A stretch of DNA of 64,000 bases from Escherichia phage vB_EcoP_EP32B. Made by a program: the position numbers and the translations under genes. The stretch's first letter is position 1; each line of letters starts with the position of its first letter. Below the pieces are notes generated by a model that was not told the origin of the DNA, made no database searches, and saw nothing but the letters and a program-made list of their open reading frames with translations. Below, piece by piece: positions 2,904 through 58,992 of the stretch. The DNA lies in sequence record OR544955; one strand, given 5' to 3'.

Positions 2904-4717
2904 AAATTGAAAAAGAAATTGAAGGATTAATTCGTAAAACTAATAAAGATCTTTTAAACGAGAATGCTAATAAAGATTCTCGTGTTTTTCCAACTCAACG
3001 GGACCTTATGGCTGGTATTGTGTCTAAGCACATTGCCAAAAATATGGTCCCGTCTTTTATTATGAAAGCGCATGAAAGTGGAATTATCCACATGCATGAT
3101 ATTGATTATTCTCCTGCTCTTCCGTTTACTAATTGTTGTTTAGTCGATTTAAAGGGGATGCTTGAGAACGGATTTAAATTAGGCAATGCTCAAATTGAAA
3201 CGCCTAAATCGATTGGTGTTGCTACTGCAATTATGGCACAAATTACTGCACAAGTTGCTTCACATCAGTATGGCGGAACTACATTTGCAAATGTCGATAA
3301 AGTTCTTTCTCCTTATGTTAAACGCACATACGCTAAACATGTTGAAGATGCGGAAAAATGGCAAATCGCTGATGCGTTGAATTATGCTCAATCCAAAACA
3401 GAAAAAGATGTCTATGACGCGTTCCAAGCTTATGAATATGAAGTAAATACTCTCTTTAGTTCAAATGGGCAAACGCCTTTTGTAACAATTACATTTGGTA
3501 CGGGAACCGACTGGACTGAACGAATGATTCAGAAGGCAATTCTTAAAAACCGCATTAAAGGTCTTGGTCGTGATGGAATAACTCCTATTTTCCCTAAGCT
3601 TGTTATGTTTGTTGAAGAAGGTGTTAATCTTTATAAAGATGATCCGAACTATGATATTAAGCAGCTTGCTCTAGAGTGTGCAAGTAAAAGGATGTATCCT
3701 GACATTATTTCGGTTAAGAATAATAAAGCTATTACCGGTTCTTCAATTCCAGTTTCTCCAATGGGTTGCCGTAGTTTCTTGGGCGTATGGAAAGATTCGA
3801 CTGGTAATGAAATTCTTGATGGACGTAATAATCTCGGTGTTGTAACGCTGAATCTTCCTCGAATTGCGTTAGATTCTTATATTGGAACACAATTTAACGA
3901 ACAGAAATTTGTTGAATTATTCAATGAACGAATGGATTTGTGTTTTGAAGCATTGATGTGTAGAATTAGTTCCTTAAAAGGAGTTAAAGCGACTGTTGCT
4001 CCTATTCTTTACCAAGAAGGTGCATTCGGGGTTCGTCTTAAACCCGATGACGATATAATTGAGTTATTTAAAAACGGTAGAAGTTCAGTGTCCTTAGGAT
4101 ACATTGGTATTCACGAATTGAATATTCTTGTTGGTCGTGATATTGGACAAGAAATTTTAACTAAAATGAATGCTCTTCTTAAACAATGGACTGAAAGAAC
4201 TGGGTTTGCTTTTAGCTTGTATTCTACACCTGCTGAAAACCTTTGTTATCGTTTCTGTAAACTAGACACAGAAAAATATGGAAGTGTAAAGGATGTTACT
4301 GATAAAGGATGGTATACTAACAGTTTCCACGTTTCAGTAGAAGAAAATATTACTCCGTTTGAAAAGATTTCTCGTGAAGCACCATATCATTTCATTGCGA
4401 CAGGTGGTCACATTTCTTATGTTGAACTTCCTGATATGAAAAACAACCTAAAAGGACTTGAGGCTGTATGGGATTATGCTGCACAGCATTTAGATTATTT
4501 TGGTGTTAATATGCCAGTAGATAAATGTTTTACATGTGGAAGTACCCATGAAATGACTCCGACTGAAAATGGATTTGTTTGTTCTATTTGTGGAGAAACT
4601 GATCCTAAAAAGATGAACACAATAAGAAGAACATGCGGCTATTTGGGGAATCCGAACGAACGAGGATTTAATCTCGGCAAAAATAAAGAAATCATGCATA
4701 GGGTTAAACACCAATGA
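2900..4717 (+). CDS. nrdD: anaerobic ribonucleoside-triphosphate reductase NrdD
   Basis: 605 aa continuous ORF, glycyl-radical C-terminus (RRTCGYLG), C-terminal zinc Cys cluster. Confidence 0.95.
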   Translation: MKIEKEIEGLIRKTNKDLLNENANKDSRVFPTQRDLMAGIVSKHIAKNMVPSFIMKAHESGIIHMHDIDYSPALPFTNCCLVDLKGMLENGFKLGNAQIETPKSIGVATAIMAQITAQVASHQYGGTTFANVDKVLSPYVKRTYAKHVEDAEKWQIADALNYAQSKTEKDVYDAFQAYEYEVNTLFSSNGQTPFVTITFGTGTDWTERMIQKAILKNRIKGLGRDGITPIFPKLVMFVEEGVNLYKDDPNYDIKQLALECASKRMYPDIISVKNNKAITGSSIPVSPMGCRSFLGVWKDSTGNEILDGRNNLGVVTLNLPRIALDSYIGTQFNEQKFVELFNERMDLCFEALMCRISSLKGVKATVAPILYQEGAFGVRLKPDDDIIELFKNGRSSVSLGYIGIHELNILVGRDIGQEILTKMNALLKQWTERTGFAFSLYSTPAENLCYRFCKLDTEKYGSVKDVTDKGWYTNSFHVSVEENITPFEKISREAPYHFIATGGHISYVELPDMKNNLKGLEAVWDYAAQHLDYFGVNMPVDKCFTCGSTHEMTPTENGFVCSICGETDPKKMNTIRRTCGYLGNPNERGFNLGKNKEIMHRVKHQ

Positions 4718-5512: not shown

Positions 5513-5821
5513 ATGATTAGTTTTGAGATTGAAATTTATGGCATCCCTGAAGAAGTAGGACGTTGTCCAGGATGTTATACTGTTACAAAACTTTTAAAGG
5601 AACTCAATGCTCCTTATACATTTTATAAAGTCCTCACTAATAATGGTAAGATTGAATATGACCGTCCTTTAATCGTATCTCTTGCTAAACGTGCAGGATT
5701 CACTTCACTTAATATTCGTTATCCTGTCATATTTTTAAATGGTAAGAAACAAAAGAATATTGCAGAGTTTAAAAAGTCCTTGATTTCATTAGGATACGAC
5801 TCTGATATCATAGAAGATTGA
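5513..5821 (+). CDS. nrdH: glutaredoxin-like protein NrdH
   Basis: 102 aa, CPGC redox motif, position after nrdG. Confidence 0.8.
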   Translation: MISFEIEIYGIPEEVGRCPGCYTVTKLLKELNAPYTFYKVLTNNGKIEYDRPLIVSLAKRAGFTSLNIRYPVIFLNGKKQKNIAEFKKSLISLGYDSDIIED

Positions 5822-6170: not shown

Positions 6171-6394
6171 TTAGTTTAGATTCAAAGAAAGTTGTTCTAA
6201 CCCTTAAAGTTAATGCGATTTGCATGTTGAAATTGCTAATGGCGTTCGTACTTATCAAGCAAATAAAACTCATTGGGATTATATCCCGATGTTGACGCTT
6301 ACTCAGCGTTTAGAATCAATCGGTCTTAAAGACCTTTCAGTAAGTGAAGTGAATTTTATCAAACGCGTTGTATCAATCAACCTCTGAGGTACTT

Positions 6395-11109: not shown

Positions 11110-11317
11110 TTATGAAATCCATCGTCATGAATTTAGTATTGGTGACGGTTATATTGGTATAGTTTTATGAGGAGACAACTCCTCGTTTCTTTGGAACCAT
11201 GTATGTTACTTGTGAGTACGCACCAGGTGTTGTTATGTATGCAGAACTAGATGAATATTTTGCTGATAGAGATGACATGTTAAAATATGTAGAGGACTTC
11301 ATTCGAAGAGAATACAT

Positions 11318-12880
11318 ATGAAATCATTTAAATTAAATCGTGTTCGTTATCAAAACATCATGTCAGTAGGTGGGAATCCTATTGATATCCAATTAGATAA
11401 AGTCCAAAAGACATTAATCACTGGTAAAAATGGCGGTGGTAAATCTACGATGTTAGAAGCCATTACTTTCGGACTTTTCGGTAAACCATTTCGTGATGTT
11501 AAGAAAGGACAAATCATTAATAGCATGAACAAGAAAGAGCTCTTAGTTGAGCTTTGGATGGAATTCGATGATAAAAAATACTTCATTAAACGTGGCCAAA
11601 AGCCCAATATTTTCGAAATCTCCGTTGACGGTGTTCGTCTCGATGAATCTGCCAGCAGTCGTGACTTCCAAGAAGAATTTGAACGTAGCATCGGAATGTC
11701 ATACGCGTCTTTTAAACAAATCGTTGTGCTTGGGACGGCAGGGTATACCCCTTTCATGGCTCTTAGCACCCCTGCTCGTAGAAAGCTTGTTGAAGACTTA
11801 TTAGAAGTTGGCACACTCGCTGAAATGGATAAAATCAATAAGTCTCAAGTTCGCGAACTTAATTCTCAGGGACAAGTTCTTGATGCCAAGAAAGATGGTA
11901 TTATCCAACAAATTAAGATTTATAACGAGAATATCGAACGTCAAAAGAAATTATCTGGTGATAATGTAGCGCGTCTACAGAATATGTATGACGACCTAGC
12001 CAAAGAAGCTCGGTCATTAAAAGCAGAAATCGAAGAAGCTAATGAGCGACTACTTAATATCGTTCTTGATGAAGACCCTACTGAGGCATTCAACAAGATA
12101 GGACAAGAAGCATTCTTGATTAAATCTAAAATTGACTCATATAACAAAGTTATTAAGATGTATCATGATGGCGGTACATGTCCTACTTGTGCATCACAGT
12201 TGCACCAGGGTGACCCTATTGTCTCTAAGATTACCGATAAGCTTCATGAATGTAATCACTCATTCGAGCAACTTACATGTCACAGAGATAATCTGAGTGT
12301 CCTAGTGGACGAATATAGAGCTAATGTCAAGACTAAACAGGACCTTGCATCTGATATTCGTACCAAGAAACAAGCAATGATTGCCACTATTGATAAAGCT
12401 AAGAAAGTTAAAGCTGCAATAGAACAAGCCTCAGCAGAATTTATCGACCATGCCGATGAGATAGCTTTGCTTCAAAAAGAACTTGATAAAATCATTAAAA
12501 CAAAATCGGATATCGTTCTTGAAAAATACCATCGTGGTATTATCACAGATATGTTAAAAGATTCTGGTATTAAAGGTGCTATCATTAAAAAATATGTGCC
12601 TCTGTTCAACAAGCAGATTAACCATTATCTTAAAATCATGGAAGCTGATTACGTGTTTTCTATTGACGAAGAATTCAATGAATCTATAAAATCACGTGGC
12701 CGTGAAGAGTTCAGTTATGCTTCATTTAGTCAAGGCGAAAAAGCGCGTATCGATATCGCATTGTTGTTTACATGGCGAGATATTGCTGAAAAGGTCTCTG
12801 GTGTTAAAATCAACACAACGTGTTCATTATTTCTCACAGAGACCATGACCCACAAGCTTATGGACAACATCTTCAAATGA
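11318..12880 (+). CDS. 46: recombination ATPase gp46 (Rad50/SbcC-like); C-terminus disrupted, H-loop segment continues in another frame to 12918
   Basis: Walker A GKNGGGKST, zinc hook CPTC, signature SQGEKARIDIAL; no Walker B in frame; VFIISHRDHDPQ in other frame. Confidence 0.85.
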   Translation: MKSFKLNRVRYQNIMSVGGNPIDIQLDKVQKTLITGKNGGGKSTMLEAITFGLFGKPFRDVKKGQIINSMNKKELLVELWMEFDDKKYFIKRGQKPNIFEISVDGVRLDESASSRDFQEEFERSIGMSYASFKQIVVLGTAGYTPFMALSTPARRKLVEDLLEVGTLAEMDKINKSQVRELNSQGQVLDAKKDGIIQQIKIYNENIERQKKLSGDNVARLQNMYDDLAKEARSLKAEIEEANERLLNIVLDEDPTEAFNKIGQEAFLIKSKIDSYNKVIKMYHDGGTCPTCASQLHQGDPIVSKITDKLHECNHSFEQLTCHRDNLSVLVDEYRANVKTKQDLASDIRTKKQAMIATIDKAKKVKAAIEQASAEFIDHADEIALLQKELDKIIKTKSDIVLEKYHRGIITDMLKDSGIKGAIIKKYVPLFNKQINHYLKIMEADYVFSIDEEFNESIKSRGREEFSYASFSQGEKARIDIALLFTWRDIAEKVSGVKINTTCSLFLTETMTHKLMDNIFK

Positions 12881-16374: not shown

Positions 16375-19059
16375 ATGAAAGAATTTTACTTAACGGTTGA
16401 ACAGATTGGTGATTCAATTTTTGAACGTTACATCGATTCTAATGGCCGTGAACGTACTCGTGAAGTAGAATATAAACCATCACTGTTTGCTCATTGTCCA
16501 GAAAGTCAGGCTACGAAATATTTCGATATCTACGGTAAGCCGTGTACTCGTAAGTTGTTCGCTAATATGCGTGATGCCTCCCAATGGATTAAACGTATGG
16601 AAGATATCGGACTTGAAGCACTTGGCATGGACGATTTCAAATTGGCGTATTTGTCTGACACTTATAACTATGAAATCAAATACGACCATACAAAAATTCG
16701 TGTGGCTAACTTCGACATCGAAGTAACATCTCCGGACGGGTTCCCTGAGCCGTCACAAGCAAAACATCCGATTGATGCTATCACCCATTATGACTCAATT
16801 GACGACAGGTTCTACGTATTTGATCTATTGAATTCTCCATATGGTAATGTAGAAGAATGGTCTATCGAAATTGCAGCTAAGCTTCAAGAACAAGGTGGTG
16901 ATGAAGTTCCATCCGAAATTATCGATAAAATCATTTATATGCCGTTCGATAACGAAAAAGAATTGTTGATGGAATATCTCAACTTCTGGCAACAGAAAAC
17001 TCCTGTCATTTTGACTGGATGGAACGTTGAGTCATTTGATATTCCATATGTGTATAACCGAATCAAGAATATTTTTGGCGAATCTACTGCGAAACGTTTA
17101 TCACCACATCGTAAAACTCGTGTTAAAGTTATCGAAAACATGTATGGTTCTCGTGAAATCATTACATTGTTCGGTATCTCTGTTCTTGATTATATTGACC
17201 TTTACAAAAAATTCTCTTTTACCAATCAACCGTCGTATTCTCTGGATTACATTTCAGAATTTGAATTGAACGTTGGTAAACTGAAATACGACGGTCCTAT
17301 TTCTAAACTTCGTTATAACATCATCGACGTATATCGTGTATTGCAAATTGATGCTAAACGCCAGTTCATTAACTTGAGTTTGGACATGGGTTATTATGCT
17401 AAGATACAGATTCAATCTGTGTTTAGCCCAATTAAAACATGGGATGCTATTATTTTTAATAGCCTTAAAGAACAAAACAAGGTGATTCCACAAGGTCGTT
17501 CGCATCCAGTTCAACCTTACCCGGGTGCTTTTGTTAAGGAACCTATTCCAAATCGATACAAATATGTAATGAGTTTCGACCTTACATCTCTGTATCCAAG
17601 TATTATTCGCCAAGTGAATATTAGCCCGGAAACAATAGCAGGAACGTTTAAAGTAGCTCCACTGCATGATTATATTAACGCAATCGCTGAACGTCCTTCA
17701 GATGTGTACAGTTGCTCTCCTAACGGCATGATGTATTATAAAGACCGTGACGGTGTTGTTCCAACTGAAATCACTAAGGTCTTTAATCAACGTAAAGAAC
17801 ATAAAGGTTATATGCTTGCAGCTCAACGTAATGGTGAAATAATTAAAGAGGCATTGCATAATCCTAATCTTTCTGTTGACGAACCATTAGATGTTGATTA
17901 TCGTTTCGACTTCAGCGATGAGATTAAAGAAAAGATTAAAAAGTTGTCTGCTAAATCTCTTAATGAAATGTTGTTTAGAGCTCAACGTACTGAAGTTGCA
18001 GGTATGACTGCACAGATTAACCGTAAATTGCTTATCAACTCACTTTATGGTGCACTTGGAAACGTTTGGTTCCGTTATTATGATTTGCGTAATGCTACTG
18101 CAATCACAACATTCGGACAAATGGCTTTACAGTGGATTGAACGTAAAGTTAATGAATATCTGAATGAAGTTTGCGGTACAGAAGGTGAAGCTTTCGTTCT
18201 TTATGGTGATACAGACTCTATTTACGTATCTGCTGATAAAATTATCGATAAGGTTGGTGAATCTAAATTCCGTGATACCAACCATTGGGTAGACTTCTTA
18301 GATAAGTTCGCTCGTGAACGTATGGAACCTGCTATTGATAGAGGTTTCCGTGAAATGTGCGAATACATGAATAATAAGCAACATTTGATGTTCATGGACC
18401 GAGAAGCTATCGCTGGTCCTCCGCTCGGTTCTAAAGGTATTGGTGGATTTTGGACTGGTAAGAAACGTTATGCATTAAACGTGTGGGATATGGAAGGTAC
18501 TCGTTACGCTGAGCCTAAACTCAAAATCATGGGTCTAGAGACTCAGAAATCTTCGACACCTAAAGCAGTACAGAAAGCTCTTAAAGAATGTATTCGTCGT
18601 ATGCTTCAAGAAGGTGAAGAATCATTACAAGAATATTTTAAAGAGTTTGAAAAAGAATTCCGTCAATTGAATTATATTAGCATCGCGTCGGTATCTTCTG
18701 CGAATAACATTGCTAAATATGATGTCGGTGGATTCCCTGGCCCCAAATGTCCGTTCCATATTCGTGGAATTCTGACATATAACCGAGCTATCAAAGGTAA
18801 TATCGATGCACCGCAAGTTGTAGAAGGTGAAAAAGTATATGTTCTGCCTTTACGTGAAGGAAACCCATTCGGTGATAAATGTATCGCATGGCCTTCTGGT
18901 ACGGAAATCACTGATTTAATCAAAGATGATGTACTTCATTGGATGGACTACACGGTTCTCCTTGAGAAGACATTTATTAAACCACTTGAAGGATTCACAT
19001 CAGCAGCTAAACTCGATTACGAGAAGAAAGCATCTCTGTTCGATATGTTTGATTTTTGA
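16375..19059 (+). CDS. 43: DNA polymerase gp43 (family B, RB69-type numbering)
   Basis: 894 aa; Exo I FDIE (D114/E116), D222, YGDTDS, KILINSLYG; strong match to recalled RB69 gp43. Confidence 0.97.
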   Translation: MKEFYLTVEQIGDSIFERYIDSNGRERTREVEYKPSLFAHCPESQATKYFDIYGKPCTRKLFANMRDASQWIKRMEDIGLEALGMDDFKLAYLSDTYNYEIKYDHTKIRVANFDIEVTSPDGFPEPSQAKHPIDAITHYDSIDDRFYVFDLLNSPYGNVEEWSIEIAAKLQEQGGDEVPSEIIDKIIYMPFDNEKELLMEYLNFWQQKTPVILTGWNVESFDIPYVYNRIKNIFGESTAKRLSPHRKTRVKVIENMYGSREIITLFGISVLDYIDLYKKFSFTNQPSYSLDYISEFELNVGKLKYDGPISKLRYNIIDVYRVLQIDAKRQFINLSLDMGYYAKIQIQSVFSPIKTWDAIIFNSLKEQNKVIPQGRSHPVQPYPGAFVKEPIPNRYKYVMSFDLTSLYPSIIRQVNISPETIAGTFKVAPLHDYINAIAERPSDVYSCSPNGMMYYKDRDGVVPTEITKVFNQRKEHKGYMLAAQRNGEIIKEALHNPNLSVDEPLDVDYRFDFSDEIKEKIKKLSAKSLNEMLFRAQRTEVAGMTAQINRKLLINSLYGALGNVWFRYYDLRNATAITTFGQMALQWIERKVNEYLNEVCGTEGEAFVLYGDTDSIYVSADKIIDKVGESKFRDTNHWVDFLDKFARERMEPAIDRGFREMCEYMNNKQHLMFMDREAIAGPPLGSKGIGGFWTGKKRYALNVWDMEGTRYAEPKLKIMGLETQKSSTPKAVQKALKECIRRMLQEGEESLQEYFKEFEKEFRQLNYISIASVSSANNIAKYDVGGFPGPKCPFHIRGILTYNRAIKGNIDAPQVVEGEKVYVLPLREGNPFGDKCIAWPSGTEITDLIKDDVLHWMDYTVLLEKTFIKPLEGFTSAAKLDYEKKASLFDMFDF

Positions 19060-19099: not shown

Positions 19100-19408
19100 A
19101 TGAAAACTACTCCTATTACTATCGCTATTGACGCAATCATAAAACAAGCTTCTTCTTTGGCCGCTATGGCCAAAGTAATTAGTCAAAACCCTGCTCGTTA
19201 TAATGCTATTCTAGAAACTCTTCGACGCCCTGGACTGAGTAATTATGAAAGTCGTGTAATTATTACAGGTGTTGGTAAGAACGCTAATATCGCAACTAAA
19301 GCTTCCGAGACATTTGCTTCACTCGGTATCCCGAGTATGTACTTGAACACTGGGCATTATTCTCACGGTGATGCAGGATTCATTGCGCCTAATGAGGCAT
19401 CGCGGTAG
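19100..19408 (+). CDS. KdsD/GutQ-like SIS-domain sugar-phosphate isomerase, N-terminal part (gene frameshifted, continues 19396-19575)
   Basis: ITGVGKNANIATK..TFASLGIPS..HGD; downstream frame has LAPTMSTT and HPGGALG. Confidence 0.6.
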   Translation: MKTTPITIAIDAIIKQASSLAAMAKVISQNPARYNAILETLRRPGLSNYESRVIITGVGKNANIATKASETFASLGIPSMYLNTGHYSHGDAGFIAPNEASR

Positions 19409-30671: not shown

Positions 30672-31088
30672 ATGATTTATTATATGCACAAAAATGCGCC
30701 ATTTAAATATGGTAAATTTCCTAATGCACAATGTTATAATATAACGCCTAATGAAAATAATAACGGATACCATCTCGGTGTAATTTTTGTAATTGTTAAA
30801 GATAACGAAATCGTTGCCTGGGCAGATTTTAAAGGTACAACATATGATGTTAATCCTGTGCCTTTCACATATTATAATTTAATGGATTTGGCATATGATT
30901 ATAATTGGTTTAATCATGAAGGATTTGACATCTCTTATTCTAGCTATTCATTATGTCCTATGAGCCGAGCTCACGGTAAAGATGTATCATATCTTTCAAT
31001 TCGGAAACGTGTAAACTTCAAACGTAGTACAGAGTATGTTGGTGGACTCTTTGTTAAAGATAATAAAATAACATTAGTTATCCTCTAA
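30672..31088 (+). CDS. hypothetical protein; reading frame appears to continue in -1 frame to about 31294
   Basis: 138-aa ORF; adjacent start-less open frame 31067-31294. Confidence 0.4.
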   Translation: MIYYMHKNAPFKYGKFPNAQCYNITPNENNNGYHLGVIFVIVKDNEIVAWADFKGTTYDVNPVPFTYYNLMDLAYDYNWFNHEGFDISYSSYSLCPMSRAHGKDVSYLSIRKRVNFKRSTEYVGGLFVKDNKITLVIL

Positions 31089-31295: not shown

Positions 31296-31481
31296 ATGAC
31301 TACTGCAATTTGCACTGGTTCTAAAATTAGTGTTTTTACAAGTTTTGAAGATTATGAAGTTGTTTCAAAACACCAATGCCATATTAGCGTAAAAGCTAAT
31401 GACGGTGTAATTTGGAATATTCCACAGTATGAAGGCACTACATATGAAGTCACAGATAAAGCAATCTTTGTAATTGATTAA
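31296..31481 (+). CDS. hypothetical protein
   Basis: 61-aa ORF. Confidence 0.4.
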   Translation: MTTAICTGSKISVFTSFEDYEVVSKHQCHISVKANDGVIWNIPQYEGTTYEVTDKAIFVID

Positions 31482-33224: not shown

Positions 33225-33313
33225 AATATCTCCTTAGTTACCTATTATTTATTACGCTTTATAAAATTAATGTTAGAATTAACTCACTTATTACTGAATT
33301 GAAAGGAAAAATA

Positions 33314-33628
33314 ATGGCGCACTTTAATGAATGTTCACAACTTATTTCTGGTGTTGATAAAGCAGAAGAAGCTTATTTTAATGCTCTGATTCACGAAGAT
33401 AAAGACCCACTTCAGGTAATGCTTGATATGCAGAAATCTTTACAGGTTCGTCTGGCAAATGACAAGCCTGAACATAACAAACATCCTGATGAATTGGCTA
33501 CTGCCGGTGATGTTGTTGATTGGCTGCGTAATCAGAAAGATTATATTGATGATGAATTCCGTGAACTGTTGACTTCACTTGGTGGTATGATTATAAATAC
33601 ACCTGTAATTAAACAACAAAGGAGTTAA
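33314..33628 (+). CDS. MazG-like all-alpha NTP pyrophosphatase (gene 56 dCTPase-like), possibly short
   Basis: 104 aa; DDEFRELL motif; position after 61. Confidence 0.45.
   Translation: MAHFNECSQLISGVDKAEEAYFNALIHEDKDPLQVMLDMQKSLQVRLANDKPEHNKHPDELATAGDVVDWLRNQKDYIDDEFRELLTSLGGMIINTPVIKQQRS
33592..33599 (+). promoter_or_regulatory. late promoter TATAAATA for soc
   Basis: exact TATAAATA about 32 nt upstream of soc ATG. Confidence 0.7.
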
Positions 33629-33630
33629 TT

Positions 33631-33774
33631 ATGGGTGGTTATGTAAACATCAAAACCTTTACGCATCCTGCTGGTGAAGGCAAAGAAGTTAAAGGTATGG
33701 AAGTTTCTGTACCGTTTGAGATTTATTCAAACGAACATCGGATTGCTGATTCTCATTACCAAGTAAGTGGTTAA
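33631..33774 (+). CDS. soc: small outer capsid protein Soc, short form (47 aa)
   Basis: MGGYVNIKTF..EVSVPFEIYSNEHRIADSHYQ resembles recalled T4/RB69 Soc N-terminal half. Confidence 0.6.
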   Translation: MGGYVNIKTFTHPAGEGKEVKGMEVSVPFEIYSNEHRIADSHYQVSG

Positions 33775-36046: not shown

Positions 36047-36505
36047 ATGCCCGGATTATCAAGATTAAGTGCAATTGTTCGTAGAAATTGGTCGTCTTCT
36101 GTTCCTGAGACAATGTATCGTGGAATCTCTAAGAAAACTATGGCCACACTCGATGATAAAGGTATTGGTAGTATTATTAAATTTGACAGAGTAATGAGCT
36201 TCAGCCCAGTGTTCGGTGTAGCACGTAACTTTGCTTCGTATAATTTTTACGGAACATTTAATATGTTCTGCATCAAAGATGCACCATTTGCTTTCAACTT
36301 CCGTGAACATATGCTTAACATGATTCTGGCTGCGCCATCTTGTGAGTTCAATGGAGCTTTCCCTGAAGCGACAAGACGGTCTAATGCTAGACTTATATCT
36401 GACGAATGTGAATTTATGCTCCCTATAGGGACTACACTGCGTGTAGATTCTATTATTCAAGATGGAAGTTATACAATCTGGAATCTGTCTATTGTCAGTT
36501 ACTGA
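36047..36505 (+). CDS. ADP-ribosyltransferase paralog; N-terminus apparently frameshifted (RBS and ATG at about 35994 in another frame)
   Basis: MYRG, SFSPV, ECEFML motifs; upstream 24-codon ORF with strong RBS ends at 36069. Confidence 0.55.
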   Translation: MPGLSRLSAIVRRNWSSSVPETMYRGISKKTMATLDDKGIGSIIKFDRVMSFSPVFGVARNFASYNFYGTFNMFCIKDAPFAFNFREHMLNMILAAPSCEFNGAFPEATRRSNARLISDECEFMLPIGTTLRVDSIIQDGSYTIWNLSIVSY

Positions 36506-45030: not shown

Positions 45031-45621
45031 ATGAAAGTTATGTTTATCCCATCTCGCGCAGTCCCATTTAATCCTGACCGTGTACAAGGTGGACTTGAAG
45101 CAGTACATTTAAATGTGTTGAAATATTTAGTTTCTATCGGTGCCGATATTGATTATATTGGTTTTGATAATGACACATTTGGTGATTGGAAGGTTAATCA
45201 TCATCCTGTTGGTCATCTGACTAAATTCAGTCTAGGTATGAGTTATACTATGGCCCGTAAGATTGTTGAACTAGCCGGCATCCATGAATACGATTTTGTT
45301 GTTACTATGGAACCGACTAAACTAACCGTCCAAGCAATTAAAGATGCTGGACTCTCTAAAGTTCATAAGAATTTTATGGCAACACCGTTTGAACCGGTAT
45401 CTCGTGGCATTGTTCAAATTTGGGACCAGACTATTCAAATTCATAAGAATGGTGGTAAGAGTTATGCTCCTACTAAAGCCTTCCGTGAATTTGAACGTAA
45501 ATATTGTTATATGACTTCAGGTCTGACTGACAAAATTGATTATGATTATTGGCGAGCAAATCCGTTGTTTGAAGCCGAAGATTATCCGGTTATTTGTTTG
45601 AATGAGAAACCTGAGATCTGA
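45031..45621 (+). CDS. GT-B-fold glycosyltransferase, N-terminal domain (gene split by frameshift)
   Basis: MKVMFIPSRAVPFNPDRVQGGLE..; ends NEKPEI. Confidence 0.55.
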   Translation: MKVMFIPSRAVPFNPDRVQGGLEAVHLNVLKYLVSIGADIDYIGFDNDTFGDWKVNHHPVGHLTKFSLGMSYTMARKIVELAGIHEYDFVVTMEPTKLTVQAIKDAGLSKVHKNFMATPFEPVSRGIVQIWDQTIQIHKNGGKSYAPTKAFREFERKYCYMTSGLTDKIDYDYWRANPLFEAEDYPVICLNEKPEI

Positions 45622-46115
45622 TTATTAGTGCACAACGTTATGACACTAAAATGCGTCGTACTGATGTTGCTCTTGAAGCGATTAAAGCACTAGGCGAAAA
45701 TGGTGCAGGATACTGTCCAAGCAAATGGGCACCACCAGCTAAATATCCTGTTATTATTGATGCTCAACACAGTGAAATCATGGAACGTCTTAAAACAGCT
45801 AAAGCACTTATTAATACGTGTCCTGACACAGGTACGGTAGAGAATAGTTCTATTGAAGCCATCTCTAAAGGTGTCCCTGTAATCCAGTTAGTTTTTAAGG
45901 ATTATCCTCATGCGACATTCGAATACGACCCAGATACTGTGCGTGTAGAAATTGATTCCTCTACTCCTAAGAAAGAAGTAGTTGCGCTTTACACAAAAGC
46001 TGTATTAGAATTCACTGACACATACGAAGCTCGAGTTAAACGTGCTGAAGCAGTATGGAAGAAGTATAATCGAGATGCAGTTGTTGCGATGTGGGATAAA
46101 ATCTTCACAGCGTAA
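45615..46115 (+). CDS. GT-B-fold glycosyltransferase, C-terminal domain (-1 frame; first ATG at 45651)
   Basis: frame open from 45615: DLIISAQRYDTKMRRTDVALEAIKAL, typical of GT4 C-domain start. Confidence 0.55.
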   Translation, partial: DLIISAQRYDTKMRRTDVALEAIKALGENGAGYCPSKWAPPAKYPVIIDAQHSEIMERLKTAKALINTCPDTGTVENSSIEAISKGVPVIQLVFKDYPHATFEYDPDTVRVEIDSSTPKKEVVALYTKAVLEFTDTYEARVKRAEAVWKKYNRDAVVAMWDKIFTA

Positions 46116-46420: not shown

Positions 46421-48634
46421 ATGATTATTGAAACGGCTAAAGAAACGATTATTGGTTCAGGCGGTAAGAGCACAGCATTCACTATTCAAGGCAATAGCAA
46501 AGTTTATAAGATTTTGTCTAATGACCTTTATACAAACAAAGAATTGGCTTGTGTACGTGAATTAATCACAAACTGTATCGACGGACAAATTCTTAATGGT
46601 TGCACTGATAAGTTTATTGTTCAGGCTCCAGGTCGTTTAGACCCACGTTTTGTAGTTCGAGACTTTGGTCCTGGTATGAGTGATTTCACCATTCGAGGTA
46701 ATGACGAAGAGCCAGGAATCTATAACTCATATTTTGCTTCAACTAAAACATCGAGTAACGATTTCATTGGTGGATTCGGACTCGGCTCTAAAGCTCCACT
46801 AGCATATACCGATACGTTTAACCTTACGTCTTATCACAACGGTGAAGTTCGTGGTTATGTAATTTACCAAGATGACACAGGTCCACAAATTAAGCCGACC
46901 TTTGTAGATAAGATGGGTCCTGATGACCGTACGGGTGTAGAAGTAGTCGTACCGGTTAACCCGGAAGATTTTGAAAAGTTTGCATCCGAAATTGCATATG
47001 TTATGCGTCCTCTAGGTGATATTGCAGAAGTTCGTGGTGTTAAAGATATTAAATACTTCCCTGAATTTGACGATGTATATTTGGCCAAGGAAGCTCCATG
47101 GGGTGAACGCGGTAATATCATGGCTGTTTATGGTGGTATTGTATATCCAATCGGAAGTGTTATTAAAGAACAAACATGGATGATGACGCGATGCACTACA
47201 GCTTATATTAAATTCCCTATGGGTGAACTAGATGTAGCTCCGTCTCGTGAAGCATTGTCATTTGATAAACGTACAGTAGCAAATATCCATAAACGCGTTG
47301 CAGAAATCGATGCTAAATTGTTCGCTGAAGATTCTAAGAAATGGATTGATTGTAAATACCCGCGTCATGTATTCCGTGAAATTGATTCTCTCGGCTATAC
47401 CGCTCGTAAATACATGGAAAAGGCCGGGTCTAATATTGAATCACTGAAATACTCTAAAGAACAACTAACTTATTCTGAGTTGTACAAACGTTTTAAAATG
47501 GGGCCTGAGTGGTGTAATCTTGGCGTCGTATACGATATCGTTGAATCCCCTCGTCTTCGTCGTATTCGTGAAAGTGGTAGCTCATCATCAACTATTTCAA
47601 TTAACAGCCTGATTGGCATTAACATTAAAAACGTTGAAATTGTTATTGACGACGTTAAGGGACGCGTTCCATTAATGCGAGCTCTTAATTCGATTGAAAT
47701 GTCTAAAGACGAGGTTAAATTAACCGGTAAAGTTCCACGCGGTTTTGGTAAAAGCGTACTATTCGTTGACCCTACAGACGAAGATGCAATGAAACTTCTT
47801 GAACGTCTTAAAGTTATCTTTGATGGCGACAACATTAACATGTACAAGACTTCAGAGCTTTTACAAATCGTTAAGCCATGGATTGAAGTCAGGAAACGGA
47901 CTAATGAGCCTCGCCCTAAATCACCGAGTGCCCATCGTTTCTTCAAGAACGAAAACGATGTTTGGGTATCGGAAGATCTCTTTATTCCAGCGAGTGAAGC
48001 TGATGAAATCCAAGGTTATGCTATAGTTCGTAATCGTTCTAATGCTGAATGTCTTGACGCAGATAAAGGTTGGTTGAACTATGACTCTAATTTCTTGACT
48101 CGTATTGCCGATTTGTCAGGTATTAAAGAGTTCACTGTAGTTCGCCCACAAATTGCTAAGAAAGTTCGTAAACTTGGTGAAGTAGAATGTTTGTTTGAAA
48201 AATCAATTAATGACTATATTATGCTAATCGATAAAGTAGATTATGATGAGTATGTATCACCAAGTCGTAGAGCACAGCCTTATTTGAATCATATTACTCG
48301 TAATGAAGAGCTTAACTTCCTTAGTAAGTATTTTAGCTCTAAGAACAAAGAAATCAGTAAAGACTTTGCAAAACTCTCAACAGTAAATAATCGCTGGGGA
48401 TGGAATCGATTCGCAGGTGCTGATAACAGAGACCTTAACAGGAAGTTAGAATTGTGTGCTAAAATTTTCGATAAGCTTAAAGATAATGCTTACGATAATG
48501 ATGATAAAATGGTTATTGAATTTGAAACCAATTATCATATTGTGTCAGAATACATGGGACGACGTGGTACTCTTTCCAAAGAACAGGTCGCTCAAATCGT
48601 TAAATTCATGAAGGCCGTGGAAGCGGCCAAATAA
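46421..48634 (+). CDS. rIIA: rIIA protein (GHKL-ATPase-like)
   Basis: 737 aa; N-terminus MIIETAKETIIG..VRELITNCID..FGPGMS as recalled for T4 rIIA. Confidence 0.9.
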   Translation: MIIETAKETIIGSGGKSTAFTIQGNSKVYKILSNDLYTNKELACVRELITNCIDGQILNGCTDKFIVQAPGRLDPRFVVRDFGPGMSDFTIRGNDEEPGIYNSYFASTKTSSNDFIGGFGLGSKAPLAYTDTFNLTSYHNGEVRGYVIYQDDTGPQIKPTFVDKMGPDDRTGVEVVVPVNPEDFEKFASEIAYVMRPLGDIAEVRGVKDIKYFPEFDDVYLAKEAPWGERGNIMAVYGGIVYPIGSVIKEQTWMMTRCTTAYIKFPMGELDVAPSREALSFDKRTVANIHKRVAEIDAKLFAEDSKKWIDCKYPRHVFREIDSLGYTARKYMEKAGSNIESLKYSKEQLTYSELYKRFKMGPEWCNLGVVYDIVESPRLRRIRESGSSSSTISINSLIGINIKNVEIVIDDVKGRVPLMRALNSIEMSKDEVKLTGKVPRGFGKSVLFVDPTDEDAMKLLERLKVIFDGDNINMYKTSELLQIVKPWIEVRKRTNEPRPKSPSAHRFFKNENDVWVSEDLFIPASEADEIQGYAIVRNRSNAECLDADKGWLNYDSNFLTRIADLSGIKEFTVVRPQIAKKVRKLGEVECLFEKSINDYIMLIDKVDYDEYVSPSRRAQPYLNHITRNEELNFLSKYFSSKNKEISKDFAKLSTVNNRWGWNRFAGADNRDLNRKLELCAKIFDKLKDNAYDNDDKMVIEFETNYHIVSEYMGRRGTLSKEQVAQIVKFMKAVEAAK

Positions 48635-48643
48635 GGAAACATT

Positions 48644-49591
48644 ATGTACAATATCAAATGCTTGTCCCAAGAAGAACAGTTAGAAGCTTACGGCCTTGTT
48701 GAATCAGGCAAATGGACTCGTAAAGAAATTGCCGATTACTTCGACATTTCAACAGATACTCTTCGTAAGATTGTTAAGAATTTTAAAGCAGAAGGCGTTG
48801 TCCCTGAAGCAAACGATGCCTCTTATGTAATCGAAGAAGTTCCAGAAAATGATGAACCTATTATCGGCGGACATCGTCCTGAAATCGTATGGAACGCGTC
48901 ATCTAAATTTATTTCAATTATTGAAGGACGCGTAGCATACAATGCGACCCCATCAAGTCATGCAAATTTTGAAGAAATTAAAGCTAATTTGGTCGCAGGA
49001 AACCTTAGTAAAGCTGTCGAACTTATTAACATCAAGAAAGCTATTAGTAAGTTTGTTGATGGTAATGTTACTATTGAAGGTGGTAGTTTATTTTATCAAG
49101 GTATAGAAATTCGTTCAGGACTGGTTAACCGTATTATTGATTCCATGGAAAAAGGTGAAGACTTTAAATTCTATCTGCCGTTCCTTGAAAACCTGTTAGA
49201 AAACCCAAGCGAAAAAGCTGTACAACGTTTATTCGACTTCTTGGTTGCAAATGATATTGAAATCACTGAAGATGGGTATTTCTATGCGTGGAAAGTAGTT
49301 CGTAAGGACTATTTAGACTGCTATAGTGGTACATTTGATAACTCCCCAGGTAAAGTTGTTTCAATGCCTCGTACTCGTGTTAACGATGATGATACGCAAA
49401 CCTGTTCTCGCGGTCTCCACGTTTGTGCTAAATCTTATATTCGCCACTTTGGTTCAAGCTCAGATAAAGTTGTTAAGGTTAAAGTTCATCCACGTGATGT
49501 TGTGTCCATCCCAGTTGACTATGGTGATGCTAAGATGCGTACTTGTCGTTATGAAGTAATTTCAGACGTTACTGAATTATTTGCAGAATAA
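48644..49591 (+). CDS. rIIB: rIIB protein
   Basis: 315 aa; MYNIKCL..; FDFLVANDIEITEDGYFYAWKVVR as recalled for T4 rIIB. Confidence 0.9.
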   Translation: MYNIKCLSQEEQLEAYGLVESGKWTRKEIADYFDISTDTLRKIVKNFKAEGVVPEANDASYVIEEVPENDEPIIGGHRPEIVWNASSKFISIIEGRVAYNATPSSHANFEEIKANLVAGNLSKAVELINIKKAISKFVDGNVTIEGGSLFYQGIEIRSGLVNRIIDSMEKGEDFKFYLPFLENLLENPSEKAVQRLFDFLVANDIEITEDGYFYAWKVVRKDYLDCYSGTFDNSPGKVVSMPRTRVNDDDTQTCSRGLHVCAKSYIRHFGSSSDKVVKVKVHPRDVVSIPVDYGDAKMRTCRYEVISDVTELFAE

Positions 49592-49596
49592 TAATT

Positions 49597-49618
49597 GGGG
49601 ACTTCGGTCCCCTTTTTT
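49597..49618 (+). terminator. UUCG-tetraloop hairpin plus T6 run
   Basis: GGGGAC TTCG GTCCCC TTTTTT. Confidence 0.8.
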
Positions 49619-49632
49619 CTTTAGGGGTAATT

Positions 49633-49920
49633 ATGATTCATCCATTTGACGTATCAGAATCCAAAATTGCTAATCTTCGTGGTCATCATAAGTGTAAATC
49701 AGTTTATTGTGCTAAATTGGTAAAACATCCTGGCGATGCACACTACGGCTGGTTAGAATGCGACGAAGTTGTTATTGAAATTCCGCCGGTAGATGCAGAA
49801 TATCTTGAAGAAGGTGACCGCATTTATTTTGGCGAACTACACATCAGAGGTATCTATGGTAAAGACGAACTTGGGACTGTTGAGACTGAAGAATCTTCCG
49901 ACATTTATCCTGTCGAATGA
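49633..49920 (+). CDS. hypothetical protein
   Basis: 95-aa ORF. Confidence 0.5.
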   Translation: MIHPFDVSESKIANLRGHHKCKSVYCAKLVKHPGDAHYGWLECDEVVIEIPPVDAEYLEEGDRIYFGELHIRGIYGKDELGTVETEESSDIYPVE

Positions 49921-49935
49921 GTTTTTGACTAGTGA

Positions 49936-50399
49936 AATGAAGGTTAAGATCGCTGATACTGCTCGGTACTCGTTGACAAATAAAAGAAGACGTTGTTCGA
50001 CGTTGTAAGGTTGCAATCTTTGCAGAGTATGTAGTAGCAAATTGGCTAGATGGATATGTTAATAAAGGTAATGAAGACGTAGAAGACCCGTACACGTATG
50101 CATGGGACGTTTTAGCTCATCCTAAGTACTGTGGTCTACGCGTAGAAGTAAAGACCCATCAGATGGATTCGAAATGGATTTCGGTTACCACAGGATACAG
50201 TGGTGATTATCCGGGTGGTAATGGAATCAATATAGGGCCCTTCTTGAACCATCGAGTCGCAGATTGCATTATTATATTAGATGTCAAAGAAACCTCACCT
50301 GACGTCTTCTCTTATTCTATAAAGTTCGTGGGAGACCATGAAGACCTAAAGAAAATCGTCCGTAAGAGCAACTACAACGGGTGGTATCTTCATCTTTAA
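49936..50399 (+). pseudogene. interrupted ORF: 23-codon start segment (49936-50007) plus start-less open frame 49977-50399 (possible DenB-position nuclease)
   Basis: 62 codons of open frame with no ATG/GTG/TTG before M at 50163. Confidence 0.4.
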
Positions 50400-50411: not shown

Positions 50412-50447
50412 GTTTACAACTAAGTAGGACTATGATATAGTAGTCCT
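50412..50447 (+). promoter_or_regulatory. early promoter with AGGACTA/TAGTCCT inverted repeat
   Basis: -35 GTTTACA, -10 TATGAT. Confidence 0.5.
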
Positions 50448-50467: not shown

Positions 50468-50731
50468 ATGAAATTTAAATTTTTCTACGCAAAACATAAA
50501 GTAACAGGTGAGTTTGTTTCAATGTACAACACCGCAGATGACGAAGGGATGATTTATACCCATTTAGGTCTATCTCACTGGGACTCGGACGTGCCTTATA
50601 TGTCATCTGAAGCCGAAATAACTCGTTTAGTTAACGGACATATGAACGACCATTTTGGTGTTATTCTTTCTAAAGACCTTAAAGAGGTTATCAACAAAGG
50701 ATATATGGAACTCGCGGAAGTTGAGATATGA
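50468..50731 (+). CDS. hypothetical protein
   Basis: 87-aa ORF, RBS AAGAGGA. Confidence 0.5.
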   Translation: MKFKFFYAKHKVTGEFVSMYNTADDEGMIYTHLGLSHWDSDVPYMSSEAEITRLVNGHMNDHFGVILSKDLKEVINKGYMELAEVEI

Positions 50732-51258: not shown

Positions 51259-51705
51259 ATGTCCAAATATTTAACTCGTAAAGACCTTCTGGCAGTTGGC
51301 GGTGAAGTTGTTGCAGTAGTTCGTAATGGCGAATATGGTTCTGAAGTTTCTAAAGAGTTTCGTTCTCGTGAAGGTTTTTACTTCTTTGTTAAAGGTTCAT
51401 CAGATTGGCGACAAGTAGCAGCACGGTTCTTTGTAGGACGTCAACGTTCTAAACAAGGGTTGGATGCAATTCTTTCTCACATTCGTCAAGGCCGTTCGCA
51501 ACTGGCTCGTACCATGGGCACTAACAATATTGAATATGATGTAATCTTTGTTGCAGCTAAGAACATGAAACCACTGACTACTGGTTACGGTAAAGGTCAA
51601 TTGGCTCTGGCATTCACTCGCAACCATACATCAGAATATCAAACACTCACTGAAATGAACCGTCTTCTGGCTGATAACTTCAAATTCATTCTGCAGAGTT
51701 ATTAA
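51259..51705 (+). CDS. ndd: nucleoid disruption protein Ndd
   Basis: 148 aa; ..[56 protein letters not shown] as recalled for T4 Ndd. Confidence 0.75.
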
Positions 51706-54535: not shown

Positions 54536-54623
54536 AATCATTTAAAGAACGTTTAGAAATGAAGTTCCTGAAATCTGTTGGCAAACTCTGGTTATTCCTG
54601 GAGTTCGTCATTACTCTAAAGAT

Positions 54624-57375: not shown

Positions 57376-57408
57376 ATTATAAAAAAGGGACCGAAGTCCC
57401 TTCTCCTT
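57376..57408 (-). promoter_or_regulatory. gene 38 translation initiation region: SD separated from AUG by a UUCG hairpin
   Basis: mRNA UAAGGAGAA GGGACUUCGGUCCC UUUUUUAUAAU AUG. Confidence 0.65.
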
Positions 57409-58992
57409 ATGCTAAACGAACGATATAGTTAAAAGCAACGTTTTTAACTGTGTTTTCTGTATTTCCTGTGGCATTTACAGTTATTGTATGTCCATGGGAA
57501 CCAATTGCAACAGTATGAGAATGAGCACCAATACCTACCGAATGGGTATGAGCGCCAATACCCACAGTATGAGCATGGTTACCCGTGGTACTTGTGGTTC
57601 CTGACCAAGAGTGTGTATGGTTACCTTCTGAAGAAGTTTTGGCTATATTCGACCCTGCAGTAGCACCGTTCACGGTTCCAGTGAATTTAGAGCACTATGG
57701 TTATGAGACTTAATACCATCTGCTTCTGTACTTAATACAGCACGCCCAGATGGTTTACCTTTAATCGTTTGCCCACGCATATCAGGCAGAGAGCCGGAAG
57801 GATACACCGCAGCTAACTTAGGATACAAGCCAGCATCAAATGTTTGACCTTCCATTATGGCATAACCTTCAGGAGGTGTATCAGTAGGCCATGGAATCGG
57901 AGCACCAATTGGGTAACTCGACACAATATCCGTCTTAAGGTTATTTATTGTGGTATTCAAGTTAGCAAAATTACCAGAACCGCCGGTGATATTACCATCA
58001 GTACCAATAATTGTCCTAATTGCATACGGTAATTAGGAGAAATGCGACTATGACTAGTTATAACAACAAGTTTATTATCATTATCAACGGTCACCATATT
58101 ACCGCCAGCACCATCATCACCTAACGTAACAGAATGGCGCATTTGAACCATACCGTTAATAGTGGTTCATTTTACCACCAGCATTGTACCCGATATGGGT
58201 TTGTCCGTCTCCAGCATTGTTATTATCAGCTTGTGTTTGAACCCTTGGTCTTCTGAACGTCCAAATATACCTTTACGAGTACTACGGAAACTGTCAGGAG
58301 TAATAGAAGCAACAGAATTCCAATTACCTACTAAATCATAAACTCCTTGCTTAATATATTTTAAGCCAGTAGCAGCATCCCCCAAAGCAATATATCTTTC
58401 TCCCATTGGAGTAGGAGAGCCGTAGTTATTGGTATTTTCGTCAGCAGTAATTGTGCCAATAGCAAGTGAACGACGTAATACCATTGCTCCATCATTACGA
58501 AGACCCATTAATTTAGTAGTAAGTATATTTCCGGTCCACCAAGAAATTTCATCATTCTTACCAGTTTGAGCTGAAGCGATTTCATGGTAAATAGTTCCGC
58601 CTGATTTAGCTCGAACTTTACGAAGATAGTTTATACCATTTTCTTCACCTGTTCCAGGATAAACATATTGAACTAATGACTGCGAATCGTATTGTCCAAA
58701 TGCTTTTGTGTCCAAAACAATGGTTTTCGTATTAACTTGCGGAGCAGAAACTATACCATTAGCGGAGTTAATATTGCCGGACGCAGAAATATTACCTGCG
58801 TTGAGTTACATTACCGTTAATATCCCCGCCCTTAGCAAAGCCTAGGCTAATAATATTACCGAGGTCATCTTTAGTAAAAAGAGTTCGATCTTTTAAGTTT
58901 ATCGCTAATTCGCCTTCGGCTAATTGTGCTGCAGTAGGATTAACTCCTGCTACTTTGCTTCTTTTAAATTGTATCTGTTTTAATGTAGCCAT
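57407..58992 (-). pseudogene. 37: distal tail fiber gene 37 (T4 type), reading frame broken into at least five segments
   Basis: N-term [13 protein letters not shown]; internal [23 protein letters not shown]; His-box C-term [22 protein letters not shown]; frame changes near 58790, 58235, 58155, 57670. Confidence 0.8.

Follow-up and report, generated by a model that had tools for sequence, protein, structure and literature searches.

The denB (endonuclease IV) locus of Escherichia phage vB_EcoP_EP32B is disrupted by a 14-bp deletion in its sequence record

DenB and its locus in the window

Endonuclease IV of phage T4, the 185-aa product of denB, is a Mg2+-dependent enzyme that cuts single-stranded DNA 5' of unmodified dC and spares glucosyl-hmC DNA; expression of denB kills E. 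coli, and the phage grows without the gene (PMC1635256). Ser176 has an important part in the polarised cleavage by the T4 enzyme (PMC2175332), and Mg2+-dependent, dC-specific cleavage of single-stranded DNA is known for the DenB proteins of T4 and T2 only (PMC1635256, PMC12916289). DenB carries a PD-(D/E)xK motif, its cleavage of the msDNA of retron Eco2 triggers the defence, and phages that escape retron Eco2 have mutations in denB, one frameshift included (PMC12405507, PMC12916289).

The window analysed here is the whole 64,000-nt stretch of phage vB_EcoP_EP32B (record OR544955), the genome of a Mosigvirus (RB69-like T-even phage), and its gene order is that of RB69 and T4: rIIA (46421-48634), rIIB (48644-49591), an intact gene for a DUF7418 protein homologous to RB69ORF272c (49633-49920, plus strand; Pfam PF24193, E = 1.2e-37), denB, an ORF270c homologue, ndd.1 and ndd (51259-51705). 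By its sequence, the locus at 49856-50399 is denB, disrupted by a deletion. It has rIIB upstream and ndd downstream; the original prediction had placed an open frame in the DenB position, and the locus indeed follows rIIA and rIIB as it does in T4 and RB69. Across 151 Mosigvirus records, the denB region has 96-97% nucleotide identity to that of the window, with DenB annotated there in each, and every relative has one ORF at this locus, labelled DenB or DNA endonuclease IV. Two possible regulatory elements were seen nearby. A GC-rich hairpin with T-runs on both strands, resembling a bidirectional terminator, stands 3' of rIIB (49597-49612), and a promoter-like site just 3' of the denB stop (50413-50441; TTTACA-17-TATAGT with an extended -10 TG) precedes an ORF at 50468-50731.

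The original prediction had proposed a profile search of the conceptual fused protein and had suggested, tentatively, a nuclease. The fusion matched PHROG 1360 (“DenB-like DNA endonuclease IV”) over positions 1-188 (E = 2.1e-83), and each half matched its own part of the profile: the 5' frame, read from 49856, over positions 1-44 (E = 7.8e-9) and the 140-aa peptide of the 3' frame over positions 46-188 (E = 2.3e-72), the latter placing this frame far beyond chance. Homologues of denB contain the Pfam domain PF26887 (Phage_T4_End_IV), and a search of a Pfam set lacking PF26887 with the denB product returned a weak match to NOV_C alone (E = 0.16). The suggestion of a nuclease was borne out in that the family is that of T4 endonuclease IV and a structural model resembles PD-(D/E)xK nucleases. 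The AlphaFold2 model of a DenB homologue with 97% identity (mean pLDDT of 84) is consistent with the PD-(D/E)xK superfamily type, having a predicted restriction-endonuclease-like alpha/beta core with D...(D/E)-x-K. A Foldseek search of the model against the PDB gave nothing significant, and a sequence search of solved structures in the PDB with DenB gave no detectable similarity. In public assemblies, truncated or frameshifted DenB proteins of the T4 type were seen with lengths of 86 aa and 159 aa (P0018, P0023); one example of a truncated DenB is at 3001-3261 of a Logan contig (L008, ERR2001085), and one of the two truncated cases lies at a contig end.

Reading frames, start codon and the 14-bp deletion

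The original prediction had described a strong open frame of about 140 aa at 49977-50399 with no start codon for 62 codons, and the sequence is as described. The frame (plus strand, +1 relative to the 5' frame) comprises 140 sense codons and a TAA, follows immediately on a TGA at 49974-49976, and is without ATG, GTG or TTG until the ATG at 50163, the only near-cognate codons before that point being ATA at 49980 and ATC at 50016. Its peptide shares 98.6% identity with residues 19-158 of the O157 typing phage 3 protein. The two segments that had been pointed out are both there, with WDV...EVK encoded at 50103-50153 and DCIIILD at 50262-50282 (in full, the frame encodes EDPYTYAWDVLAHPKYCGLRVEVKTHQ and ADCIIILD). 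Residues of catalytic type are D-P (50085-50090), the D of WDV (50106-50108) and E-V-K (50145-50153), and the equivalent of Ser176 lies within K-S-N-Y (50364-50375); the columns of D-P, D, E-V-K and K-S-N-Y are invariant across the DenB family, and all are encoded in the 3' frame.

The short upstream ORF does have 23 codons in a different frame, as had been claimed, and its actual position is 49937-50008 (plus strand) rather than 49936-50007: an ATG at 49937-49939 is followed by 23 sense codons encoding MKVKIADTARYSLTNKRRRCSTL and by a TAA at 50006-50008. This ATG is an internal Met, equivalent to the annotated denB start of the RB69 type. Its frame stays open further upstream, where a second ATG is found at 49856, and the 5' fragment of denB read from there (49856-50008, plus strand) consists of 40 native codons (MVKTNLGLLRLKNLPTFILSNEFLTSEMKVKIADTARYSL, to 49975), 10 out-of-frame codons (TNKRRRCSTL) and the same TAA.

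We consider ATG 49856, which gives the gene 185 aa as in T4, to be probably the true start, and more likely than the ATG at 49937, the one that the original prediction had noted. It has AGAGG 5 nt upstream. The N-terminal extension that it adds (M-x-K-x-N-P-G-L-x-R-L...D-L-T-x-E) matches positions 1-27 of PHROG 1360 and is kept in T4 DenB and in distant homologues, including several without a Met at the internal site. T4 DenB itself begins 27 residues before “MKVKIADT”, the annotated start of the RB69 type, and in each of the four Mosigvirus relatives tested the frame is open from the ATG equivalent to 49856, with LH01 annotated in the long form (558 nt, 185 aa). In the window, the long form overlaps the last 65 nt of the DUF7418 ORF. 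A by-product of this comparison is that Mosigvirus DenB as usually annotated, with 158 aa (RB69 NC_004928, NP_861961.1), probably starts 27 codons late and misses 27 N-terminal residues.

Relatives carry one intact ORF at this locus, which upholds the earlier reading of a frameshifted gene; the lesion is a deletion of 14 bp, however, and not a single-base slip. Alignment with 11 relatives (RB69, vB_EcoM_G2469, O157 typing phage 3, LH01, six contigs with an identical RIIB, and T4) placed the junction at 49976/49977 on the plus strand. The missing bases (AACAAGATCCAGGT in most relatives) correspond to the codons for K-Q-D-P-G less one base, and they are present in all 11, in each of which denB occupies one frame. 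The 151 records that span the denB region likewise have about 14 extra bases relative to the window. There is no microhomology at the junction. A 48-mer search for the junction in INPHARED gave no match, nor did a 28-mer search in IMG/VR, JGI metagenomes and GTDB genomes. Searches of E. coli RefSeq genomes and of PLSDB plasmids with the denB region were negative, from which it follows that the window is not a phage copy residing in a sequenced host.

The remainder of the gene shows no decay. The retained parts differ from relatives mainly at synonymous positions, as in the comparison with LH01 (5 nonsynonymous and 31 synonymous codons), and this predominance of synonymous differences indicates that denB was under selection until essentially now. 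LH01 has an RIIA protein identical to that of the window, but with an identity of only about 97% and an intact denB it is not the parent. The locus has every sequence feature of the DenB family that was looked for except an uninterrupted ORF, the 14-bp deletion having shifted the frame. The missing 14 nt put the two halves out of frame, so that no enzyme would be made by ordinary translation. Within the 3' fragment, the sole ORF with a canonical start is one of 78 aa (50163-50399, plus strand), which lacks a good Shine-Dalgarno sequence upstream and the entire D...E-x-K region; it would be without an active site because the catalytic residues (50106-50153) lie upstream of its ATG. Taken at face value, the denB of the window would thus be a null allele and a disrupted rather than a functional member of its family.

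Origin of the frameshift

Some two dozen similar deletions lie in the window, which the original prediction had missed, and they change how the frameshift is to be read. Compared with O157 typing phage 3, the window lacks stretches of 4-722 bp at 22 or more sites, insertions of a comparable kind being absent, and the deletions inside the LH01-aligned region also appear against LH01. Microhomology is zero at 18 of 22, and the lengths modulo 3 are distributed 7/8/7 over the 22 deletions; the lack of an in-frame bias suggests that they have not passed through selection. When 14 junctions (denB and 13 others) were sought in 50,697 phage records, none was present.

The deletions also cluster. The distal long-tail-fibre gene gp37 (57407-58992, minus strand, an interval with junctions at 57691, 58010, 58158, 58243 and 58801) has five deletions (247, 334, 722, 43 and 350 bp) with changes of frame, all in the roughly 2.8 kb of the gene in which the alleles of relatives are most variable, where about one would be expected at the window-wide rate. 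Its remnants are ORFs of 88, 96, 64, 182 and 66 aa, compared with 1,093 aa in O157 typing phage 3, and a tail fibre could not be made from this sequence. The dCTPase gene gp56 (33299-33774) has a 594-bp deletion (junction 33589/33590), which removes two small ORFs and joins gp56, cut off at residue 92 where relatives have 173 aa, to the final 12 codons of a small ORF further downstream. In gp46 (SbcC/Rad50-like; 11318-12880), an 88-bp deletion (junction 12816/12817) shifts the frame, leaving 520 aa compared with 562. By T4 genetics gp37, gp46 and gp56 are essential, and a genome carrying all of the lesions could not form plaques.

Further deletions affect a soc-like gene (89 bp at about 33760, shortening it to 47 aa), the gp43 DNA polymerase (16375-19059; 27 bp in frame at 17313, giving 894 aa rather than 903) and a kpsF-like arabinose-5-phosphate isomerase gene (19100-19408; about 159 bp missing at 19395). 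Exact lookup of the altered gp43 (894 aa) and gp46 (520 aa) proteins found neither on record. The remaining differences from O157 typing phage 3 are deletions of 214 bp at 1540, 176 bp at 2391, 296 bp at 5526, 28 bp at 6216, 14 bp at 11165, 24 bp at 30920, 4 bp at 31073, 12 bp at 31458, 91 bp at 36063 (modB) and, with a 26-nt island kept, about 175 bp at 54557-54584 (arn.3). A 16-bp deletion (AGTTCTTCCGGCGACT in relatives; junction 45614/45615) splits the 366-aa homologue of ORF003c (45031-46115) into ORFs of 196 and 154 aa; the homologue in LH01 is split independently, into 274 and 58 aa, by a 1-bp difference. RB69 ORF003c is a proposed arabinosyl-hmC transferase (PMC6024577).

With a probability that we put at roughly 0.72, the denB frameshift is a lesion of the sequence record and not a product of phage evolution. 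An artefact is favored because the denB deletion is one of at least 22 unselected deletions that break essential genes as well. Uncovered stretches may have been dropped from a consensus, contigs may have been abutted without Ns, or the sequence may have been edited in some other way; alternatively, the deletions might stem from a non-replicating template. Enrichment of GC in the deleted segments, as a sign of coverage dropout, was not seen (0.388 versus 0.372). Some points count against an artefact: differences from relatives are mostly synonymous, which indicates that the sequence is not generally error-ridden, a real null allele of the dispensable denB is biologically plausible, and other natural records also have frameshifts in neighboring accessory genes, the ORF003c homologue of LH01 among them.

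Of the other explanations, the one that fares best is that the phage DNA truly lacks the 14 bp and that denB, which encodes a toxic nuclease not needed for growth, has recently lost its function, the allele being either neutral or selected because DenB activity sets off host defences such as retron Eco2; we regard this as unlikely. Such an allele is biologically plausible, since T4 does not need denB for growth (PMC1635256) and frameshift mutants are viable and selected by retron Eco2: T-even escapers carry a denB +T frameshift and W181* (PMC12405507, PMC12916289). Truncated DenB products in public assemblies (P0018, P0023) point the same way, and the undecayed remainder of the ORF fits a very recent event. 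However, at least 21 other deletions of the same kind lie in the window, 13 of their junctions were checked without one being found in the phage collection, and frame-breaking deletions without in-frame bias reach gp37, gp46 and gp56. The denB junction is common to no relative, and the prior for denB being the sole real exception is low. The narrower proposal of a real DenB-null allele in the phage population, kept because defences of the retron Eco2 type sense DenB activity, is improbable, and more exotic still would be a variant in which low-level +1 slippage yields traces of a DenB shorter by five residues and so attenuates the toxic enzyme.

It seems very improbable that the locus holds two functional genes, one for a small N-terminal peptide and the other for a C-terminal protein of 78 aa with its own expression. 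The ATG at 50163 and the 78-aa ORF are intact, but this ATG is an internal Met in the intact gene of close relatives and an Ile in RB69, no Shine-Dalgarno sequence precedes it, and the 78-aa piece would contain only half of the modelled fold and no catalytic D...E-x-K. The 78-aa product is also unrecorded anywhere: exact lookup, in an index of 153 billion genes for the 78-aa sequence, found neither this product nor the 50-aa one.

Hardly credible, finally, is that a programmed +1 shift at A-AAA-AGA-AGA (49982-49990, plus strand), or a bypass of the gap, supplies a low and controlled amount of full-length DenB-like protein, as all 11 aligned relatives, T4 included, read the gene in one frame and conserve no such signal. 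The site, a four-A run and tandem AGA codons in the 5' frame, falls within the 29-nt overlap of the two frames and is the only one where a +1 slip could formally join them, giving a hypothetical product with the junction peptide ARYSLTNKEDVV. E. coli uses AGA codons rarely, and rare Arg codons in tandem are known to provoke +1 slips; DenB is toxic, and T-even phages are known for recoding, as in the bypass of gene 60. In the in-frame relatives, though, the A-run is native coding sequence, and RNA folding around the site does not stand out from that of shuffled sequences (z = -0.31). The slip product would also be without five residues, including a Gln that is invariant in the family (Q41 of P0001). 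An Rfam search of the junction region gave no match at E ≤ 1.

A deliberate dC-DNA or modification-deficient mutant, in which gp56, denB and the ORF003c homologue would be affected as in T4 dC phages, was considered and rejected as the principal interpretation: the same kind of damage is seen in gp37, gp46, soc, modB, arn.3 and numerous small ORFs, and gene 42, glmU and phosphoheptose isomerase (arabinose pathway) are intact.

Under the preferred reading of a damaged sequence record, the denB frameshift is a quality flag and should enter annotations neither as a new arrangement of genes nor as recoding, and the whole window is best treated as sequence with many unselected deletions before any of its “pseudogenes” are interpreted. 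Were the deletion true, the phage would be a natural DenB-null, the Mosigvirus counterpart of laboratory escape mutants. This would bear on sensitivity to retron Eco2, and on transduction and the breakdown of host DNA when therapeutic T-even phages are chosen.

Comparison with known systems

Nothing at this locus is new in kind: the family is well characterised, and viable escape mutants with a denB frameshift have been described before. Set against restriction-endonuclease-like nucleases of the PD-(D/E)xK type, such as NhoI, SwaI, DpnI, HincII, Hjc and DXO/Rai1, DenB has no detectable sequence similarity to any solved structure, and its helical N-terminal part is specific to DenB. As to T4 DenB, the locus occupies the same site downstream of rIIB, the intact Mosigvirus orthologues have 73-74% protein identity to the T4 enzyme, and the window encodes the N-terminal extension, the D-P...D...E-V-K-T-H-Q core and the C-terminal R-K-S-N-Y-x-G-W-Y with the equivalent of Ser176; in contrast to T4, the copy in the window is without 14 nt and out of frame. 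RB69 denB (NP_861961.1, annotated as 158 aa) and about 150 Mosigvirus orthologues are near-identical to the window in nucleotide sequence on either side of the junction (96-98%), and all of them are intact.

With the denB escape mutants of retron Eco2 the window shares an early frameshift, a premature stop and a DenB-null outcome. Those mutants, however, have genomes that form plaques and are intact apart from a point mutation or the insertion of one base, and they arose under a known selection, whereas the denB of the window has a 14-bp deletion without microhomology, accompanied by broken essential genes and with no known history of selection.
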